This document shows, piece by piece, positions 470 through 13,843 of a stretch of DNA of 15,193 bases. The notes below the pieces were generated by a model. It did no database searches. It had not been told where the DNA came from and was given only the letters and a program-made list of their open reading frames with translations. This stretch comes from Abditibacteriaceae bacterium (lineage in GTDB: Bacteria > Armatimonadota > Abditibacteriia > Abditibacteriales > Abditibacteriaceae): the NCBI GenBank assembly GCA_031372065.1, contig JANMKN010000091.1:1-15193 (forward strand). Direction: 5' to 3'. Position 1 is the first letter of the stretch. Each line of letters begins with the position of its first letter. A program made the position numbers and the translations under genes.

Positions 470-1918
470 ATGAAAAAAACCAGAACAGAAACTGTAACTA
501 ACAACTTTAAAACAAAAACTAAAACGGGCCACGCAACAACGCGCCAGCAACCAAGCACAGTTACTGACGACGCGGCCAAGGCCGTGCGTCCACAACCCAC
601 CCGCCAAAAACTTGCACCCACCACTCAAGAAGCAGAGGGGATGCTTCTTGGCAAAGATGAAATGAATCTTGTCGAACATCCTTTTGCCGTTCTAAAGCAT
701 GGCAATCAGGATCGAAACATCATCCGTTTGAGCTTTGAAAAAGTTCACCCTCGAAGCGGTAAATTAGTGAAATCCCTTTGGGAAGTCAGTGGACATCCAG
801 AGCAAGGTCTTCCCGGCCCCACAGAAGAACGTCTCTATGTCGCACTGATGCAGATCACCAGAGAACAAAATCCCAAGGAGAAAACGATTTACTTTTCCCG
901 TGGCGATTTAATGAATCGTCTTGGGTGGCCTCACACCAAACAATATTATGAAGCGTTGGCTACCGCATTTACTCGCCTCGCCGCTGTAACGATTCGTGCC
1001 GATCGGGCCTTCTGGGACGCGGCGCGCGAAGATTACTACGCCACCGTGACCTTCCACGTTTTGGAGGAAGTTCACATTTCCAATGAACCGCCGGGCCGCC
1101 GCGCTCAAAACGCGCTGCCGCTCAGTTCATTTTCATGGGGCGATACCATTTTCCAGTCTCTGCAAGCGGGCTATCTACGAAGTTTGGATACCGACTTTGG
1201 ATTATCACTCAATCTGCCGCTCTCGCTCCGGCTATTTCGTTATCTGGATCGACACCGACGCGGCAAGGGCAGGGCAGAGAACCGCGCACCACGCAACTCT
1301 TTTAGCATCGGCCTCAAACGTCTCTGCGAAATCCATTTGGGCATGGCCGCCTCACCCTACAACTCCAAACACAAAGAACGCCTCAAACCAGCCCACGAGG
1401 AACTTATTGAACGCGGATTTTTAGCCTCTTATGAATTTTCCCAGATGAAAAACAAAGAAGGCGAAAAGGTAACTTATCACTTCGCCGCACCCAGCACGAT
1501 GCTATCGGCTACGCTATCGGCCACACCAGCCGGCGCTGTTCCGCCAACTGGTGGTAACAACAAGGATGAACACAACTTTAACCCACAAAGCACATTATTC
1601 GAAGATGTTTTCACACCAGCCGAAGACATCCAAAAGTTCCAACCTGCCCTTGAAATAGAATTGCAGCTTCGCGAGGCCGAACTCTGGGAAGACTCCGCCA
1701 ACGAAGTTTTTGAACTATTGCCGCAACAAATCCACGATGAGTTATGGAAGCACGCCCTTGAGCCACTGCCTATCATGTTCCGCGAAAATCCTAAGCTGCT
1801 CGGTGCCCAGCGCGCCATCCGCAAGCAAATTGCTGAACTAATGCGATTCGATCACGAAAACATCGTTATCGATCACATACGCCAAAAAATACATAACGAA
1901 AAAGAGAATAAATCATGA
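470..1918 (+). CDS. Plasmid replication initiator protein (replication initiator A / winged-helix Rep type)
   Basis: 482-aa ORF with an N-terminal GKDEMNLVEHPF motif, GLPGPTEERLYVALMQ, FSRGDLMNRLGW and LSLRLFRYLD segments typical of iteron-binding plasmid initiators, next to an iteron array. The start may be 470 or the downstream ATG at 641. Confidence 0.85.
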   Translation: MKKTRTETVTNNFKTKTKTGHATTRQQPSTVTDDAAKAVRPQPTRQKLAPTTQEAEGMLLGKDEMNLVEHPFAVLKHGNQDRNIIRLSFEKVHPRSGKLVKSLWEVSGHPEQGLPGPTEERLYVALMQITREQNPKEKTIYFSRGDLMNRLGWPHTKQYYEALATAFTRLAAVTIRADRAFWDAAREDYYATVTFHVLEEVHISNEPPGRRAQNALPLSSFSWGDTIFQSLQAGYLRSLDTDFGLSLNLPLSLRLFRYLDRHRRGKGRAENRAPRNSFSIGLKRLCEIHLGMAASPYNSKHKERLKPAHEELIERGFLASYEFSQMKNKEGEKVTYHFAAPSTMLSATLSATPAGAVPPTGGNNKDEHNFNPQSTLFEDVFTPAEDIQKFQPALEIELQLREAELWEDSANEVFELLPQQIHDELWKHALEPLPIMFRENPKLLGAQRAIRKQIAELMRFDHENIVIDHIRQKIHNEKENKS

Positions 1919-2925
1919 ATGAGAAAACCGCTGCGTTGCGTCTTCTACCATCGCTTTCTATCGAAATGCCTTTGGACAGGGCTTCAGATGACCTATTGGA
2001 GAATGCCCCACAGGACATCTACGAGGCCTTCGCCGAATTCCTGCAAATTGATGTCGCCAACGGCGATGCCACCGATGACACAATCCGCGCCTACCACAAG
2101 GAAATTGGCTTGTTCACGCGGTGGTGCCGCGAGCGAAACATAGCACCAGAAAGCGCCACGCGCCGCCACATCGAAGCCTACCGCGAATCTCTCAAGACCA
2201 ACGGCGCCGCTGCTTCGACGCGGCAACACAAAATGTCCATCGTGCGGCGTTTCTACGAGGCTGCGGTCAAGCACGGCGTCTTAACGATAAATCCCGCCGC
2301 CAACGTCAAAGGCGGCAAAGATTTAACGCCACCTGAAGAAAAAATGAAGGCGCTGACCAAAAGTGCATTGCATCATCTGGTCGGTGCCATTCCCTCCTCA
2401 ACGCTGCTCGGCCAACGAGATCGGGCCATCATTGCGCTGATGGCCGTGCATGGTTTAAGGCGTATTGAGGTTCACCGCCTGAATCACGAAAGCGTAGATA
2501 TTAGCGATGACACACCATCACTACGAGTCATCGGCAAAGGTAATCGCGTGCGTAAAATCTACCTGCGCGAAGATACCTACAACGCCATCCAAACTTATGT
2601 GCGCGCCAAAATGGAGCATCATTTCCCGTTAACTGGCGCCTTGCTGGTCTCCCACAGCAATCGCACACGAGGGGCACGCATCAGCCGCCGCTCACTAAAT
2701 GACATCGTTGATCATTATCTGAGCGAAGCGCACTTGAAAAAGGTCGGCGTTTCCTGCCATGCGCTGCGCCACACCCACGGCACGCTGGCCGTCGCCGGCG
2801 GCGCCAAAGTCGAACACCTGAAAGAAGAAATGGGCCACAACCATCTCGAAACCACATCAATCTACGTTAAAGCCGTCAGCCGCCGCGAAAACAACCCGGC
2901 AAACTTTATTGATGTGGAATTTTGA
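1915..2925 (+). CDS. Tyrosine recombinase (XerC/XerD-like integrase/resolvase)
   Basis: The full catalytic set is visible: HGLRRIE (R), GKG (K), HALRH (HxxR), MGH (H) and TSIY (Y), plus an N-terminal SAM-like core-binding region (DTIRAY). Its ATG overlaps the rep stop codon (ATGA, 1915-1918). Confidence 0.95.
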   Translation: MNEKTAALRLLPSLSIEMPLDRASDDLLENAPQDIYEAFAEFLQIDVANGDATDDTIRAYHKEIGLFTRWCRERNIAPESATRRHIEAYRESLKTNGAAASTRQHKMSIVRRFYEAAVKHGVLTINPAANVKGGKDLTPPEEKMKALTKSALHHLVGAIPSSTLLGQRDRAIIALMAVHGLRRIEVHRLNHESVDISDDTPSLRVIGKGNRVRKIYLREDTYNAIQTYVRAKMEHHFPLTGALLVSHSNRTRGARISRRSLNDIVDHYLSEAHLKKVGVSCHALRHTHGTLAVAGGAKVEHLKEEMGHNHLETTSIYVKAVSRRENNPANFIDVEF

Positions 2926-2938
2926 TTAGGAGCTACAA

Positions 2939-4603
2939 ATGCCATTCCCACAAAGAAGAATTACAAAACAACAGGAACAAGGTGAATCTGGACAACGAGA
3001 AACGGAAAAATGCTTTGCTGCGGTTGGATGGCAACCACGCCCTTTAACTCCTGATTTGGGTGAAGATTTTATTGTTGACATATACGACGATGGCATCTCT
3101 GCCGGCCTCGCATTTTACGTTCAAGTAAAGAGCATCGCAAATGCCAGTAGCATCACACGACGTAATGAGGAACTGAGCTATTCTCTTGAAATTAAAGATT
3201 TAGAACACTGGGAAGATTACAGGCCCACAGTCGTCTTACTAATTTGGGATATAGCCAATGCCTGCGGCTACTGGGAATTAATTGAAAATATTATCTCTAA
3301 ATTAAATGCAAACAAACCAACTTGGCGAACTCAAAAATCAATAGCAGTCCGAGTCCCATTTCGTAACACCACTGATAAAGAGAGTTTTAAGCGACTTCGC
3401 CGCTTAATTGCTTTAAAAGAATTACCAACATTCGGGGCTGGTAAGGAATTAACCACAACAGTTACATTTTCTTTTCCAGATACAGATCAAGGTAAATATG
3501 AAAATAAAGCGATACAGCAACTTGAGGAATATGGTGACGGTGCTGAGATTACCACCGATTTCATCACAAAAATAGAAGCGCCAGATTGGTATCAACGCAA
3601 GTTCGGCAAGATTGAAATCGCTTCTGGTGGAACGATTAAATTTGGCACTTGCTCCTCAGACAAGATAACTAAGTTTCGCCTTAAACTACTGTCTCCACAG
3701 CAACGCGTCGAACAAATTTTACAAATTGAAACCAAACCGATAAAAATTGGTAGCAAAAGAATCACGTTTTCCAACGCTCACAATCCCTTGCCATTTAATT
3801 GTCAACTTGTTTTTGAATTGGGCGGAAATGTCAAAATCAGTTTCTCGCTTAACCAAACAAAATTGAACGCTCATGAAGCATTCAAGGCTTTTGATTTTTT
3901 CAATAGAGTAAGGCCGAAAGGCACCTTATATATAGAACCGGTCATCAATACCAATGACGCAGATAATTGGGACCCATGGAAAGCAGTGCGTATTTCTATT
4001 CCCAATGCGACCTATTTTGAGATGGGGGCAGCCTTTCGTAAATTATTAGAAAGAATGAAATTCATCGAAGAAAAGACAAGCATCGAATTCGACCTCACTT
4101 CAGCCAACTTAGAAAATATGGATGGCGAAGAGTGGAAAGAGGTGCATCGACTGGCCCAAATTACAGAAATGGGGAGACTCAAATATAACTTTAAGCATCT
4201 GGAATGGGACCTTAGCCAACCAAAAACACCCGATGCAGGAAGACGCCTTATCGAACTCGCATGGAAACGTCATAGAGAAAACACACCCATTGTATTTCAT
4301 ACTGATACTGGTCAAGTTACAATTCACACTTGGAACTCAGATATTCCTGTTGGACCCCAAAAAACATATATTCAAGGCCTATTCGACGAAGAATCCCTTA
4401 AATATTTGGTTAAAACCATAGAATCTGGAGAATCACCACAGGAATTAAGCATTTCACTCGTCAATGGATTGTGTTTGGAGGAATACACAGACTGGATAAA
4501 AGATGACAGCCAATTGAAATCACTTAGGCAGGAAATGGAGCAACAGGACTCAGGATCTGAGTCCTTCGGATTCAACATCACATCCTTCAAACGCATTATT
4601 TGA
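2939..4603 (+). CDS. DUF4365-like (PD-(D/E)XK fold) N-terminal domain protein, putative nuclease
   Basis: 554 aa. The N-terminal GESGQ..E...PDLGEDFIVD...FYVQVKS...LEHW...VVLLIWD pattern matches DUF4365-type restriction-endonuclease-fold domains. RBS AGGAG lies upstream. The C-terminal ~390 aa are unrecognised. Confidence 0.75.
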   Translation: MPFPQRRITKQQEQGESGQRETEKCFAAVGWQPRPLTPDLGEDFIVDIYDDGISAGLAFYVQVKSIANASSITRRNEELSYSLEIKDLEHWEDYRPTVVLLIWDIANACGYWELIENIISKLNANKPTWRTQKSIAVRVPFRNTTDKESFKRLRRLIALKELPTFGAGKELTTTVTFSFPDTDQGKYENKAIQQLEEYGDGAEITTDFITKIEAPDWYQRKFGKIEIASGGTIKFGTCSSDKITKFRLKLLSPQQRVEQILQIETKPIKIGSKRITFSNAHNPLPFNCQLVFELGGNVKISFSLNQTKLNAHEAFKAFDFFNRVRPKGTLYIEPVINTNDADNWDPWKAVRISIPNATYFEMGAAFRKLLERMKFIEEKTSIEFDLTSANLENMDGEEWKEVHRLAQITEMGRLKYNFKHLEWDLSQPKTPDAGRRLIELAWKRHRENTPIVFHTDTGQVTIHTWNSDIPVGPQKTYIQGLFDEESLKYLVKTIESGESPQELSISLVNGLCLEEYTDWIKDDSQLKSLRQEMEQQDSGSESFGFNITSFKRII

Positions 4604-7895: not shown

Positions 7896-7976
7896 AGAAC
7901 CCGTTTTCTGATTTAATTATTTTTGAATTGTTTTTGTTCTGTTCGTCCGTTTCGTTCGTCTTCGCCCTACTTCTCC

Positions 7977-8327
7977 ATGTCCGACTCCTCGAACATCCTT
8001 AACCCTATCCACAATTTTGCCGTGCGGATGTTCCCTGACGATTCAGGACAATGGACTGTTGCAGAGATGGTGGCCGCCACGCAAAAGCAATATGAAGCAC
8101 CTGATGACTTGCAAATCACCGAACCCCAATTTCGCAATGCGATTCGCAGTCTGCGGGAACGCACAACCAAATTCCCCTTGGCTGACAGCATTGACGAAAT
8201 CCCTTGCAGCGATGCCACACGCTATCCACCAGCTTCGGCTCGCCTCATTTTGCGCACCGTGATTCGCGGGCGCTTGCCAAAAAACTTAGCGCAAAACCCA
8301 CCTTCACTCAATGTAGAACAAGCCTAA
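7977..8327 (+). CDS. Small hypothetical protein, possible MerR/excisionase-like helix-turn-helix
   Basis: 116 aa from ATG 7977. WTVAEMVAA...ITEPQFRNAIRSLRER...TRYPPASARLILR loosely fits a MerR-like winged HTH. The function call is tentative. Confidence 0.55.
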   Translation: MSDSSNILNPIHNFAVRMFPDDSGQWTVAEMVAATQKQYEAPDDLQITEPQFRNAIRSLRERTTKFPLADSIDEIPCSDATRYPPASARLILRTVIRGRLPKNLAQNPPSLNVEQA

Positions 8328-8455: not shown

Positions 8456-8797
8456 ATGAGCACAATTTCTCAATCAGCCGTGCCTGTGCGTGGCCCTGAT
8501 GGTTTGCTGTTACCTCCTAAACAAGATTTAGTGGCTTTTGGCTTGCTCGGCGCCGACGGACGTTTGCGCGAAAAACCACAGCCAATTACTTGCCAAGATT
8601 GTGCGGAGCGCATCGGTAGTGACGGCGGCTTACTATGCGTGCGCATCGGCCAATTTCTTTGCTATTATCACTCCAAAGGCAAATTTAAAGACGGTAGCCC
8701 GCGCGGACGTTGGTTGCTTGTTCAATTTCAGTGCGCCAATCAAGGCAAAGCCGTTGTGATTTGTGATTTCGGCCACCGCTGCGAAATTCCGCTGTAA
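8456..8797 (+). CDS. Cys-rich zinc-finger protein (Com-like), candidate RNA-binding late regulator
   Basis: 113 aa from ATG 8456 (purine-rich AGGAAAGG upstream). ITCQDC...LLC and terminal VICDFGHRC provide CxxC plus CxxxH/C metal ligands. It ends 21 nt before a late promoter. Confidence 0.6.
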   Translation: MSTISQSAVPVRGPDGLLLPPKQDLVAFGLLGADGRLREKPQPITCQDCAERIGSDGGLLCVRIGQFLCYYHSKGKFKDGSPRGRWLLVQFQCANQGKAVVICDFGHRCEIPL

Positions 8798-8818
8798 ATC
8801 CTCGTTGTAAACCGGCTC

Positions 8819-8827
8819 TGCTATAAT
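8819..8827 (+). promoter_or_regulatory. Extended -10 promoter for the terminase unit
   Basis: TG-C-TATAAT is a perfect TGnTATAAT, directly upstream of the leader box and hairpin. Confidence 0.75.
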
Positions 8828-8849
8828 CTTTTTTGACATTCAAATTATC

Positions 8850-8918
8850 AGGCCCAGAGCCGCGTTTTTCGTATTCTTGTGTTCCCACAGAATTAGGAAA
8901 GCGCGGTTTTTTGTTTTT
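8850..8918 (+). terminator. Leader attenuator 1: AGGCCCAGAGCCGC box overlapping an intrinsic terminator
   Basis: Box at 8850-8863. Stem 8856-8870 pairs with 8896-8910 (four G-U pairs) and encloses an inner ATTCT-GTG/CACAGAAT stem. The U-tract TTTTTTGTTTTT spans 8907-8918. It lies between the promoter and the first gene. Confidence 0.8.
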
Positions 8919-8952
8919 GCGGGCACTTGAATTGGCAATAGCACAATCGGCA

Positions 8953-9315
8953 ATGGCACAAAACGAAAAAGAAATTCAACAAATTACCTTCCTTGCTTCG
9001 TTTCCTCCCATTGCCTCGGCGATTTTGCGTTCTGGTGCTGGCGATGGAATGCAAATCAAACTCAGCATCCCTGAATCGGAAATGGGCAATGCGATTCGCT
9101 GCCAATTGTGGCCGGGCAAGCATTTAGAAATTACGATGAGGGTTCTCAATGACGAAGAAATCCGCAACCTCCACCAAAAAAACAACCGTCAACAAGACAA
9201 CGGCGAAGGCCACCAAGACAGTGAAGAAACCAATGGCGGCGAAAGTGGAGAACGTCGAACTCTTAAGCGGGCAGCGCCACGACGGCGAGTCAAACGCGGC
9301 GATAATCGCGTGTAA
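8953..9315 (+). CDS. Phage hypothetical protein preceding the small terminase
   Basis: 120 aa from ATG 8953 with a folded-looking N-terminal half (ITFLASFPPIASAI...GDGMQIKLSIPESEMGNA). The track's TTG start at 8833 would run through the leader terminator and is unlikely. Confidence 0.7.
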   Translation: MAQNEKEIQQITFLASFPPIASAILRSGAGDGMQIKLSIPESEMGNAIRCQLWPGKHLEITMRVLNDEEIRNLHQKNNRQQDNGEGHQDSEETNGGESGERRTLKRAAPRRRVKRGDNRV

Positions 9316-9994
9316 CGATTGGCTGCGTCTGGGGCCGGGACGCTCCTTGCGCCGTTTGCTGGACATTTACTTTCAGGCCAAAAACCCACCAAAACCCACC
9401 AGCACCCACCAAAATTCGCCTTATCAACTGCCTTATGAGCCGCCGACTTGCTCACTGGACACAATCAAAGGCTGGTCTTTGCAGTTCGATTGGAAAAACC
9501 GCGCCGTGTTTTTCGATCAGGAAGGCGAGGAAGCAAAAAACGCGCGACGCAAGGAAGTTTTCGGCTCCGGTTTGGGGTTGGACTTTGAACGTGTTGAAGC
9601 CCTGAACAATATAGCCAACTTGCTCTATGGGCAGATTTTTGAAACCAGCGAATCGGGCGACTTCGACCATGAAATCAGCATTGAAGGCTCCAAAGCACGC
9701 GAGTATCACAATCTCTGGGTGCATGATGTGAAAGCCATTGGCAGTGGGGACTTTGCCGAGCGTGTTGACCTTGAGCGCTTCAACTCTTCTATTTTGTCGG
9801 AATTTCGCTCCCTGCTGACGGAGATCGCACAAGAAACCGGCGGGCGGCGCAAAGGCGCCCAGCTCGAAGCGTTTATCAAAAAGGTTCAAGAGAGGCTCGA
9901 CACCTCCAAGCTAAAAGCTGAACAGGTGGAGCGCATACGTGCCGGCGAACACTGGATCATCGTTCTTCTCGAACCCTATATGCTTGGCGAGTAA
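9149..9994 (+). CDS. Putative terminase small subunit
   Basis: GQRHDGESNAA...WLRLGPGRSLRRL...TIKGWSLQFDWKNRAVFFD is an HTH pattern typical of small terminases. RBS GAGGG at 9138-9142. It lies directly upstream of, and overlaps, the large terminase. Confidence 0.78.
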   Translation: MTKKSATSTKKTTVNKTTAKATKTVKKPMAAKVENVELLSGQRHDGESNAAIIACNDWLRLGPGRSLRRLLDIYFQAKNPPKPTSTHQNSPYQLPYEPPTCSLDTIKGWSLQFDWKNRAVFFDQEGEEAKNARRKEVFGSGLGLDFERVEALNNIANLLYGQIFETSESGDFDHEISIEGSKAREYHNLWVHDVKAIGSGDFAERVDLERFNSSILSEFRSLLTEIAQETGGRRKGAQLEAFIKKVQERLDTSKLKAEQVERIRAGEHWIIVLLEPYMLGE

Positions 9995-11855
9995 TCCGCT
10001 CGATGCCGATTCCCAATTCCTGCAAAAGCTGGAAGCGGAACACGTCCTGCGCGCTTCCTACGCCGCTGATGTGGAGGCTCTTCAGGAAAAGCAGGAACAA
10101 ACAGCACTCGCAACCGAATCTCTCGCTGAATTCGTCAAGCAAGCGTGGCATATCATGGAGCCAGACACGCCACTTTTGTGGAACTGGCACCTCGACTGCA
10201 TTTGCGCGCATCTGGAAGCTGTCACCTTCGGCCTGATTCGCCGCCTCATTATTAATGTGCCGCCGGGGCACATGAAATCGCTCATAACTTCGGTCTTCTG
10301 GCCTGCGTGGATGTGGCTGCGTCAACCGGGCACGCGCATCTTGTGCGCGTCTTATGGTTTGGATTTAGCGATACGCGATGCCACCAAAACCAAAGACCTT
10401 GTTTTAGATCCGTGGTATCAAGACACCTTCGCGCCGAACTGGCACATCCGCAACGATTCCAAAGCCAAACAAAATTACCAGAACACGGCGCGCGGTTCTC
10501 GTAAAAGTATGTCGGTCGGCAGTGGCACAACGGGTAATCGCGGCCACGGCGTTATTATTGATGACCCGCTGTCCATCATGGATGGCTTCTCTGAAGCCAA
10601 GCGCAGTGAAGCCAGCAAATGGTTATTTCAAGCCGCTCAAAACCGTCTATCCGACCCGCGCACCGGCTGGATAGTGATGATCATGCAGCGCGTGCATCAC
10701 GAAGACCCGACTGGCGCGGCGCTGGAAAAGAAGGTTGATAAATGGGAACTGGTCTGCCTGCCTTCGGAATTTGAGGAGGAGCGCGCCTTTCGAACCCTCT
10801 TAGCCGATTTGCCGCCAGATCACCCCCATTACGAGCGTTTTGCCAAGTGGGGCAAAGACCTCCGCAAATCGCCGGGCGAATTGCTCTTTCCGGCGTTTTT
10901 TACCGATCAAGTTATTGAGGGGCAAAAAGAAGCCCTGCAAGCGTTGGCCTATGCGGGTCAACATCAACAGCGTCCTACGCCGGCGGCGGGCAACATCTTC
11001 CAAGCCGAAATGTTCCTCGAAATTCTTTCGATGGATAAAGGCGAACCGCGTTTGGGGTTGTGGTCAACCTCGCGCCTTTTTGATGGTTCGCTCAAAGTGC
11101 GCGAAGCCTATTTCGCGTGGGATACGGCCATGAAGGACAAAACCACCAACGACTTTACTGCTGGTTGTTTATCCCTATTGTGTGACGATGGCTACGTTTA
11201 TCTGTATCCGGTTGAGTTTCGCCGTATGACGGTGCCGGAAGTCGAAAAACGTGTCGCGCTTTCTTGGGTAGAATGGCGCAATCGCTTGCAGCGCCGGTTA
11301 AAAGGCGCGCGCATCGAAGAGGGCGCGGGCACGGCGCTGATTCAATATATACGCCGTTTGATGCTGCAACGGCGTGAGATGGTAAATTCGCCAATTCCCG
11401 GCTGGTCACAAGATGACTGGGATATGATTCGTGCCACGGATCCCATCAACGTTTTTCCGTTTACAACATCGCAAAAGAAGATTGAAAAGGCTTACGAAGT
11501 GCTGCCTTTTTGCGCGGCGCGCAACGTGCGTTTGTTGGATACGCCACTCTCCTATGGATGGCTTTCCAATCTGCTGGCGTTTCCCCTTGGTGGCAAAGAT
11601 GACCCTGTGGATTCCACCGTCAATGCTATTGGCCCATTTGCCGGTGTGGTCAAGGGCCTTAGCGTTATGCCACCCGAAGAATTGGAAGCTGCGTTGGAAC
11701 CAGACCCTGAAAACGTAGATCTGTCGGTTTATGAAAAGATGATTCCTTTGGATGCAGGCATCGTGAATCAAGCAGAAGATGTAGCATCCCTGATAGATGC
11801 TGCCATGAAGCAAGCTGGATTGGATGATTTCATGGCGGCGCTGGAAGGTGGGTAA
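9939..11855 (+). CDS. Phage terminase large subunit
   Basis: WNWHLDCICAHLEAV, Walker A INVPPGHMKS, Walker B VIIDDP, coupling motif IMQRVH, QHQQRP, and nuclease acidic motifs AWDTA..DFTA and DDPVDS. The exact start is uncertain (GTG 9939 or TTG 9984). Confidence 0.95.
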   Translation: MPANTGSSFFSNPICLASNPLDADSQFLQKLEAEHVLRASYAADVEALQEKQEQTALATESLAEFVKQAWHIMEPDTPLLWNWHLDCICAHLEAVTFGLIRRLIINVPPGHMKSLITSVFWPAWMWLRQPGTRILCASYGLDLAIRDATKTKDLVLDPWYQDTFAPNWHIRNDSKAKQNYQNTARGSRKSMSVGSGTTGNRGHGVIIDDPLSIMDGFSEAKRSEASKWLFQAAQNRLSDPRTGWIVMIMQRVHHEDPTGAALEKKVDKWELVCLPSEFEEERAFRTLLADLPPDHPHYERFAKWGKDLRKSPGELLFPAFFTDQVIEGQKEALQALAYAGQHQQRPTPAAGNIFQAEMFLEILSMDKGEPRLGLWSTSRLFDGSLKVREAYFAWDTAMKDKTTNDFTAGCLSLLCDDGYVYLYPVEFRRMTVPEVEKRVALSWVEWRNRLQRRLKGARIEEGAGTALIQYIRRLMLQRREMVNSPIPGWSQDDWDMIRATDPINVFPFTTSQKKIEKAYEVLPFCAARNVRLLDTPLSYGWLSNLLAFPLGGKDDPVDSTVNAIGPFAGVVKGLSVMPPEELEAALEPDPENVDLSVYEKMIPLDAGIVNQAEDVASLIDAAMKQAGLDDFMAALEGG

Positions 11856-12997: not shown

Positions 12998-13684
12998 ATG
13001 GGAAAGTCCAACGAAGAGCTAAAAACTGAGTTAGTTGATTTTTTGCGGCGGCTGGAGGAAAAAGCACTACTAATAAATGGTAATCTGCAAACTCTTAAAA
13101 TAATTGACGAATGTCTGCGTGATGACCGCGTTGCTATGTTAAGGATGTTTGAAGGTTATTTTTCCTTAACAATTGATGCTCTGGTCTCCAACATTATTGT
13201 GCGCACGTTCAATATGTATGATGAAAGTCCCAGGGCACAACGGGGAATTCCGCAATTCTTGACCCGCGCTCGTAGCGACGCGCATACTTTAGTGCCACCA
13301 CAAATCGGAGGTCATATGTTGGCACCTGTCTTGGTTTCATCCAAGCAGGATTTGATTCACATGATTGACCATCAACTCCAAAACATCGAAACGGCAAAAC
13401 CAATCCTTGAAAAAATTGCTATTCATCGCTCAAAATATAGGGTTCACAGCGATAAGAAGTTTTTCGATGATCCAAACCTGCTTTTGGGCGAATATCACCT
13501 AAACATTCAGGACTTGGATGAGATTGACGCCTTAACGCGAGCAATTTTGGCAAAGCAACACATTATCATTATTGGGTCTGATTGGACACCGATTTTAGCA
13601 GAGGGCTATGATGTGGTGCGCCTTGTGGAGTTTTTGAAACGCGGGCATGAAGCTTTAAGAAACCAAAGTCGGCCTAAACTTTAA
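12998..13684 (+). CDS. HEPN (AbiU2-like) RNase-domain protein
   Basis: 228 aa, helical composition. ALVSNIIVRTFNMYD and RSKYRVHSDK (R-x5-H followed by xD, 13427-13447) resemble AbiU2-type HEPN domains. It is AT-richer than the flanking phage genes. Confidence 0.65.
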   Translation: MGKSNEELKTELVDFLRRLEEKALLINGNLQTLKIIDECLRDDRVAMLRMFEGYFSLTIDALVSNIIVRTFNMYDESPRAQRGIPQFLTRARSDAHTLVPPQIGGHMLAPVLVSSKQDLIHMIDHQLQNIETAKPILEKIAIHRSKYRVHSDKKFFDDPNLLLGEYHLNIQDLDEIDALTRAILAKQHIIIIGSDWTPILAEGYDVVRLVEFLKRGHEALRNQSRPKL

Positions 13685-13705
13685 ATGAGATTTTGTGAAC
13701 CGTGG

Positions 13706-13735
13706 TTCGCAAAAACCCGAAAAATCGCATAAAAT
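13706..13735 (+). promoter_or_regulatory. Putative promoter of the second late unit
   Basis: TAAAAT at 13730-13735 with a weak -35 (TTCGCA, 13706-13711). It is positioned 18 nt before the second leader box, paralleling the first unit. Confidence 0.55.
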
Positions 13736-13753: not shown

Positions 13754-13804
13754 AGGCCCAGAGCCGCAACGCCATGATATTTGGCGTTGCGGCTCTTTGT
13801 TTTT
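13754..13804 (+). terminator. Leader attenuator 2: AGGCCCAGAGCCGC box overlapping an intrinsic terminator
   Basis: Box at 13754-13767. Perfect 15-bp stem AGAGCCGCAACGCCA (13760-13774) / TGGCGTTGCGGCTCT (13782-13796) with a 7-nt loop, then TTGTTTTT. Confidence 0.88.
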
Positions 13805-13843
13805 GGCTCGCTGTTTTGGCTTTTTAGTTTTCAGGAGAATCAA

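Follow-up and report, generated by a model that had tools for sequence, protein, structure and literature searches.

A box fixed to the terminators of an Abditibacteriota phage-plasmid, and an orphan cysteine-rich protein as a candidate to read it

What might a small orphan gene be doing directly upstream of a promoter whose transcript runs straight into a terminator? The question is raised by a stretch of 15,193 nucleotides (nt) from an Abditibacteriaceae bacterium, analysed here in full and referred to as the window, which is the complete contig C282 of a 6.1-Mb assembly in 410 contigs (G000). In it a basic, cysteine-rich orphan protein of 113 amino acids (aa), P0001, is encoded just upstream of a leader that combines a promoter-like element, a 14-nt box and a terminator; a second leader with the same box lies upstream of an endolysin gene. 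A preliminary description had taken P0001 for a zinc-finger protein like Com of phage Mu, and for the trans-acting factor of the repeated leaders, acting on termination of transcription. Having compared the window with the rest of its assembly and with four genomes that carry P0001 homologues (G001, G021, G022 and G023), we find that the box is repeated on terminators along the phage to which the window belongs, and we consider it probable that these boxed terminators form a read-through regulon. Whether P0001 serves that regulon is a separate and less secure matter.

The two leaders (coordinates in Table 1) carry the identical 14-mer, which begins 22 nt past the hexamer of the extended −10 element TGCTATAAT in leader 1 and 18 nt past TAAAAT in leader 2. 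Their terminators fold at −35.2 kcal/mol (8826–8925; z = −5.1) and −36.5 kcal/mol (z = −5.7), respectively, with 0 of 200 shuffles as good in either case. Leader 1 is about 80 nt long, and its terminator ends about 90 nt beyond the −10. The preliminary description had counted 21 nt from the P0001 stop to the extended −10 and had placed the box in the terminator stem of the leader; both readings are exact, the box at 8850 running into a strong hairpin followed by a U tract. As for the promoter-like element itself, the window has one copy of TGNTATAAT where 0.23 would be expected, and 41 of 200 shuffles have at least one as well, so that it is not significant alone; the identical 9-mer TGCTATAAT lies 3′ of the G001 homologue (74% identity), close to the contig end. 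A −10-like hexamer could be made out by eye 13–22 nt upstream of the box in at least four cassettes (8850, 13754, C408:13828 and G023:9721), and the same reading of the leaders found a common (A)ATTC 6–8 nt upstream of the box in four promoter-proximal copies and no clear −10-like pause element. At 8813–8822 lies CCGGCTCTGC, an inverted 8-of-10 copy of the CAGAGCCG part of the box, about 33 bp upstream of it; it overlaps the TG of the extended −10 and may be chance. A sequence common to the G022 and G023 upstream regions, ATTCTGTGCAGTAAA, was discarded as a candidate signal, being absent from the window.

The preliminary description was also right that the leaders are repeated, and the repetition extends well past the window. 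Allowing up to one mismatch, the box has 13 matches in G000 (against 4 for a reversed control), and 11 of these are followed by a hairpin and a T tract. All 11 lie on just five contigs, C282, C284, C408, C38 and C370, and are oriented as their flanking genes are; the remaining two (on C159 and C265) have no hairpin after them. Since contig ends overlap at C284:20068 and C408:23, these two of the 11 probably represent a single site, and we count about ten boxed terminators. The end of C284 (20040–20146) overlaps the start of C408 (1–110) with small differences, some of them within the boxed terminator, and represents either an assembly break from strain microdiversity or two close phage variants. 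A scan of the five contigs for hairpins with a T run, blind to the box, returned 13 sites at −23 kcal/mol or stronger, and eight of them have the box; of the five unboxed ones, one lies within the P0001 open reading frame (ORF), two are the two strands of a single bidirectional terminator, and two are on C370. On the plus strand of contig C91 of G023, five of the nine sites at −20 kcal/mol or stronger are boxed.

Six of the boxed terminators occupy matching intergenic positions in G000 and G023: upstream of the small gene that precedes and overlaps terS, the terminase small-subunit gene; of the endolysin gene; of C284_512; of the protease-like gene; of C408_4260; and of C408_8229. The proteins flanking these sites are approximately 41–72% identical between the two genomes, and the upper stems and loops of the hairpins have diverged, leaving only the box core, AGGCC-N2-3-GAGCCG(C), in common. 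Because the core was kept while the rest of the hairpin drifted, we take the box to be a selected signal rather than a product of recent copying. For a closer look we aligned 28 elements from G000, G001, G023 and G022, which were selected by the box pattern and whose 5′ letters are therefore fixed by construction; the box-blind scans show the same letters. In these elements the stretch 5′ of AGGCC is not conserved, and GAGCCG(C) makes up stem positions 1–7 in 28 of 28. Every element has C-G at positions 4–5; at position 6 there are 26 G-C pairs and two A-U pairs, at position 7 a G-C flip is seen, and from position 8 onwards the pairs are free to vary. The partner of the first stem G is U in 18 elements and C in 10, so that pairing alone does not require GAG. 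Seven letters of the 14-mer are unpaired and the others sit at the base of the stem; a plain terminator has no need of such a fixed word. The exact box in IMG/VR was followed by a terminator in none of the 120 matches listed and the gapped pattern in none of the 17 listed, and among 120 matches listed from metagenome contigs there was no true element, four automated candidates having been rejected on reading.

The placement of the boxed terminators also bears on what they do. At C408:4183 the U tract is only about 25 nt from the next start codon, and several of the gaps are too short for a promoter; with no room for one past the terminator, the downstream genes need read-through. We therefore favour the following scheme. 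Transcription would start at constitutive-looking promoters and be halted by the terminators as long as a phage factor is missing. The box, AGGCC-N2-3-GAGCCG, would be recognised as nascent RNA, and a protein holding the emerging AGGCC and GAGCC would block the lowest 5–7 pairs of the stem, beside the U tract, so that the polymerase would read on. The fixed register between box and hairpin favours action terminator by terminator. The factor itself may be P0001, which would be made from the RNA that precedes the first late promoter.

Such a scheme has precedents in antitermination. In ribonucleic antiterminator (RAT)-type systems (BglG/SacY/LicT), and with RNA binders of the HutP and TRAP type, the 5′ arm of a terminator contains part of a conserved RNA site. 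The box overlaps the 5′ arm in the same way, so that binding would exclude the hairpin, and like those sites it repeats short words (AGGCC, GAGCC). Unlike in RAT leaders, no alternative antiterminator hairpin is visible, and the regulon is phage-wide rather than confined to one operon leader; nor did P0001 match a CAT/PRD, HutP or TRAP domain in Pfam.

Which protein would read the box? We regard P0001 as the best-placed candidate because it is basic and non-enzymatic, has its gene immediately ahead of the first late promoter and is present in every box-bearing phage. Its translation contains C46-Q-D-C49 and C103-D-F-G-H107-R-C110, exactly as the preliminary description had it, and its isoelectric point of 8.8 falls within a range of 8.3–9.8 over all seven family members computed. 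The family is an orphan one of about 10 sequences. Searches found three relatives among 5.8 billion clusters and four matches among 1.84 billion representatives; one of the latter, P0008, was set aside, being a protein of 1649 aa with repeated short matches. Among 61 genomes searched, the homologues are 74% (G001), 49% (G023; 47% in the family alignment) and about 40% identical to P0001 (G021 and G022); there are weak matches in G036, G040 and G044 (E 2e-4 to 8e-3), that in G044 with in-frame TGA stops, and a weak second match in G022 (C244; E 0.0095) with one in-frame TGA. No relatives were found in IMG/VR or in metagenome contigs, and tblastn against phage GenBank sequences gave no match. 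P0001 likewise matched nothing in Pfam, PHROGs, NCBIfam, PADLOC or the sequences of the Protein Data Bank (PDB); a loose Pfam scan of the family brought up just Zn_ribbon_10, at E 0.05. We found no longer, fused forms of the protein, which is weak evidence.

An alignment of ten members splits the family into two subfamilies. The first jointly retains C46, C49, C61, C103, H107 and C110, and its members are likely to bind zinc; we infer the zinc-finger label for P0001 from this co-conservation of cysteines. In the second (G021, G022, P0006 and P0007), a deletion has removed the eight residues of the CxxC loop, and other residues stand in place of each remaining putative zinc ligand. None of the 16 columns that are invariant across the family is His, Asp, Glu or Asn, which suggests a binding protein rather than an enzyme. 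AlphaFold2 predicts a mostly beta structure with a mean predicted local distance difference test (pLDDT) score of 80, in which we see a predicted zinc-ribbon-like core. The best BFVD row for this model is a 67-aa phage 'Elf1-like' zinc ribbon (E 0.21, prob 0.99), a weak match with a template modelling score of 0.70 on the target and a root-mean-square deviation of 2.8 over 75 columns. Against the PDB, the best Foldseek match has an E of 0.75 and the best VIA-align Z among 48,161 chains is 2.8; in the ESM Atlas the best score, 0.81, is under the usable level.

The likeness to Com, with which the preliminary description began, is one of circumstance. Each is a small phage protein, rich in cysteine, whose gene lies just 5′ of a structured RNA that blocks the next genes. 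Com has 62 aa, with a C4 finger at the N terminus and a disordered tail, and binds a hairpin adjoining the translation-inhibition structure, thereby activating translation (PMC6483171). P0001, at 113 aa, differs from it in size and in the spacing of its ligands (a CxxC at 46–49 plus 61, 103, 107 and 110), and one P0001 subfamily is devoid of zinc ligands altogether, unlike the zinc-finger Com of that report. The target would differ too: a terminator repeated about 10 times here, a single translation-inhibition hairpin there. A profile alignment of the P0001 family with Mu Com, in the sequence of the annotated Mu record, gave an hhalign probability of 7.5% over 11 columns around one CxxC, BLASTP gave an E of 0.56, and PF10122 matched no protein among the ten of the family even at E up to 10, and nothing above cut-off elsewhere in the genome. 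Kinship with Com is thus not borne out. What the two do share is a word: the motif obtained for Com by systematic evolution of ligands by exponential enrichment (SELEX), CC(N)2-3GAG (PMC6483171), equals the box core CC-N2-3-GAG, variable spacer included, and this pattern is present in just 0.5% of the 14-mers of the window. We treat the match to the published motif as a coincidence, a lead and not evidence. It is doubtful, in our estimate, that we are dealing with a new kind of phage antiterminator in which an orphan zinc-ribbon-like protein would read the CC-N2-3-GAG box on some ten terminators, switch on a late regulon and have arrived at the RNA word of Com by convergence.

Does P0001 travel with the box? 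In all four phages that are not remnants (G000, G001, G023 and G022), members of the P0001 family and boxed terminators occur together. Among 27 family genomes, at least four exact boxes were found only in the three with a zinc-type homologue (seven in G000, four each in G001 and G023), and the stray exact matches have no terminator in any of the eight examined. Three box-like terminators are found in G022, whose homologue belongs to the non-zinc subfamily, and one of them is in a TAAAAT-box-terminator cassette at the position equivalent to that in G000; since a phage whose homologue lacks the ligands still has them, the zinc finger is not the conserved working part. The preliminary description had proposed to check whether homologues are followed by a similar leader. 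In G000 the promoter, box and terminator do lie between P0001 and the small gene; in G001 TGCTATAAT is present and the contig stops ahead of any box position.

A number of points weigh against P0001 as the factor. The co-occurrence count covers G000, G001, G022 and G023 and leaves out the contigs of P0002–P0005. Its four phages are relatives in which any lineage-specific gene would co-occur, and their kinship means that co-occurrence cannot single out P0001; other orphan candidates adjoin it, namely a small protein with an Arg-rich tail and the product of a 134-aa ORF. The leader is present in G023 only past an inserted gene of 156 aa that separates it from the homologue, and it is missing from G021 and G022, where the homologue and the gene after it overlap without any intervening promoter, box or terminator. 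The putative zinc site is not the conserved core of the family, profile and fold searches recognised no RNA-binding family or fold for P0001, and a second repeated signal, TGT-N12-ACA at promoters, could equally be served by a zinc protein. The claim that P0001 is the factor for the leaders draws on synteny and on co-occurrence among related phages. We put forward as tentative, and as plausible only, the proposal that P0001 binds the box on nascent RNA and suppresses the roughly ten boxed terminators that would gate the late genes.

The alternative that fares best keeps P0001 out of transcription control. The protein would assist the packaging module or be a small binder of another kind, and another factor, from the phage or the host, would read the boxed terminators. 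The order P0001-like gene, small gene, terS, terL (the latter for the terminase large subunit) is kept in 5 of 5 genomes, the overlap with the next gene in G021 and G022 is one of start and stop codons, and the module survives in the prophage remnant of G021, which is followed by host transporter genes and shows none of the boxed terminators over 60 kb. One subfamily can do without the zinc ligands, as the alignment indicates, and no regulator family was recognised for P0001. No known packaging family matched it either, and the protein is small and basic and has no invariant residues of a catalytic type. Late regulators of other phages are also encoded directly upstream of terS, which weighs against reading the gene order as a sign of packaging. 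We consider this alternative possible, if rather doubtful.

A second alternative starts from the palindrome. The 18-bp TGTGAACCATGGTTCACA has seven sites on the phage contigs at up to three mismatches (Table 1; the count leaves out C219, C273, C316 and the overlapping C408:7419), and three of them (C282:13694, C408:3076 and C370:14347) end 16–18 nt before a TATAAT or TAAAAT, which puts the centre of the dyad near −40. A dimeric regulator of late promoters probably binds there. At C408:7380–7440 the palindrome is embedded in an array of TGTGAAC-like repeats. P0001 could then be a DNA-binding late activator that acts on TGT-N12-ACA in place of a −35 region, the box being a separate signal. The late promoters of P2 have the same TGT-N12-ACA and depend on the zinc-finger activator Ogr (PMC3931495), so that with P2 Ogr, P4 Delta and 186 B the present phage would have in common a small zinc-type protein and promoters of this pattern. 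Variants of the palindrome occur in the zinc-type genomes G001 and G023, and the sole match in the 33-kb contig of non-zinc G022 has four mismatches; that contig is only part of its phage. PF04606 (Ogr_Delta) matched no member of the P0001 family and nothing above cut-off in the genome, the cysteine spacing of P0001 is not the CX2CX22CX4C of Ogr, and the promoter right behind P0001 has no palindrome. The centring of the dyad near −40 is a further difference from the Ogr group. We judge an Ogr-like role unlikely.

A third alternative takes its model from phage lambda, in which the Q gene is followed by the PR′ promoter and the tR′-terminated leader. P0001 would load onto RNA polymerase at promoter-proximal leaders and confer resistance to all downstream terminators, the box being a loading or pause signal. 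The layout is similar: a gene in regulator position, a −10-only promoter 21 nt past it, a leader that meets a terminator after about 80 nt, and genes for lysis and packaging beyond; several boxes have a −10-like hexamer ahead of them, as described above. P0001 has the placement of Q, directly ahead of a late promoter whose transcript soon meets a terminator; its G021 and G022 homologues do not. In contrast to lambdoid Q, the signal here is fused to every terminator, with several promoters and terminators involved, and it also marks terminators that have no promoter, such as that past the protease-like gene (C284:20068); a processive system would have no need of the constant register between box and hairpin. 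No Q family in Pfam or PHROGs matched P0001, its predicted fold is mostly beta, the fold lists (whose best matches are weak) contain no solved Q structure, and neither a Q-binding DNA element nor a sigma-dependent pause element could be identified in the leaders when read by eye. On balance this alternative is distinctly unlikely. Elsewhere in the phage, C284:11638–12294 had a Q-like PHROG match (E 1.8e-4 over 36 residues) and was rejected as an antiterminator: the match is actually to a CXXCXGXG zinc motif, which also matches DnaJ and Anti-TRAP below their cut-offs.

That the boxed hairpins are ordinary terminators, RNA 3′-end stabilisers or processing sites with no dedicated factor, P0001 being adjacent by accident, is very unlikely: the hairpins are strong canonical terminators by themselves and the window has no match to Rfam or to a known regulatory RNA (0 at E up to 1), but the 14-nt word, with its seven unpaired letters, was kept at all six matching sites while the rest of the hairpin drifted.

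Table 1. Features of the window, with the further sites of the palindrome on the other contigs of the phage
Feature	Position	Strand	Basis or remark
RepA-like gene	470–1918	+	family search
Tyrosine integrase	1915–2925	+	family search
DUF4365 nuclease-like protein	2939–4603	+	also PADLOC nuclease model, E 2e-13
PadR-type regulator and several orphan genes	between the DUF4365 gene and P0001	+	family search
Upstream orphan, 134-aa ORF (gene caller: 86 aa)	7923–8327	+	conserved beside P0001 family
P0001, 113-aa basic cysteine-rich orphan protein	8456–8797 (ATG 8456, TAA ends 8797)	+	translation
Extended −10 promoter-like element TGCTATAAT, no −35 hexamer	8819–8827	+	sequence reading
Box copy 1, AGGCCCAGAGCCGC	8850–8863	+	exact; 3′ half is the terminator stem base
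Leader terminator 1	8856–8918	+	hairpin 8856–8910, U tract T6GT5 at 8907–8918
Small protein (FLASFPPI... core), first gene past the leader	8953–9315	+	alignment of 4 homologues, synteny
terS, terminase small subunit	9149–9994	+	phrog_6299, E 3e-8
terL, terminase large subunit	9939–11855	+	phrog_38, E 2.5e-70
345-aa gene	downstream of terL	+	
AbiU2/HEPN-like gene	12998–13684	+	Pfam E 1e-5, slightly under cut-off; between packaging and lysis genes
Palindrome TGTGAACCGTGGTTCGCA (TGT-N12-ACA type)	13694–13711	.	ends 18 nt before the leader 2 −10
−10-like hexamer TAAAAT, leader 2	13730–13735	+	sequence reading
Box copy 2, AGGCCCAGAGCCGC	13754–13767	+	exact
Leader terminator 2	13760–13806	+	15-bp stem 13760–13796, T3GT5; upstream of CHAP endolysin gene
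CHAP endolysin	ATG 13844	+	phrog_9589
Palindrome TGTGAACCATGGTTCACA, phage-wide sites	C282:13694, C284:416, C284:18767, C370:3812, C370:14347, C408:3076, C408:7409		

The two neighbouring orphans named above deserve a fuller account. The small gene runs 167 nt into terS in another frame, and its Arg-rich tail (APRRRV; RTLKRAAPRRRV) is encoded there. The tail is conserved in all four homologues, whose overlaps with terS are 74–167 nt long; either both frames are coding, or its conservation follows from that of the DGES codons in TerS. The AlphaFold2 model of the small protein has a pLDDT of 56, too low for a fold search. The 134-aa ORF has four relatives in the 5.8 billion clusters, two of which share contigs with P0001 relatives, and a homologue in G023; family searches yielded nothing beyond a weak match to sigma-70 region 4 (E 0.11).

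The window looks like part of a temperate phage-plasmid of approximately 75 kb in an Abditibacteriaceae metagenome-assembled genome, because it encodes a RepA-like initiator and an integrase (470–2925) and C370 encodes ParA and an S24 repressor-like protein (1044–2655). All large ORFs of the window are on the plus strand. The remainder of the phage is spread over C284, C408, C38 and C370, and the five contigs together, which are collinear with a prophage at about 8–80 kb of G023:C91, encode a major head protein, a protease-like protein, tail genes, methyltransferases, ParA and the S24 repressor-like protein. The DUF4365 and AbiU2/HEPN-like genes are likely to be defence morons within the phage. 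Downstream of a boxed terminator on C284 (1764–8192) is a gene for a 2142-aa DarB-like helicase/methyltransferase protein (phrog_10089, E 0), which is conserved in G023. In the G021 remnant, the terL homologue (G021:C11, L069:12734–15628) encodes 964 aa and contains an intein with a LAGLIDADG domain. A full-text literature search found no paper describing an Abditibacteriota phage or prophage.

The phage-plasmid thus offers a view of a regulatory grammar in the Abditibacteriota, made up of constitutive-looking promoters, a 14-nt box on about ten terminators and a second, palindromic promoter signal. It also supplies three orphan candidates for the factor: P0001, the small protein and the product of the 134-aa ORF. 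If the box is indeed a read-through signal, it would make for a phage-wide switch that works one terminator at a time, unlike the promoter-loaded Q and N systems.

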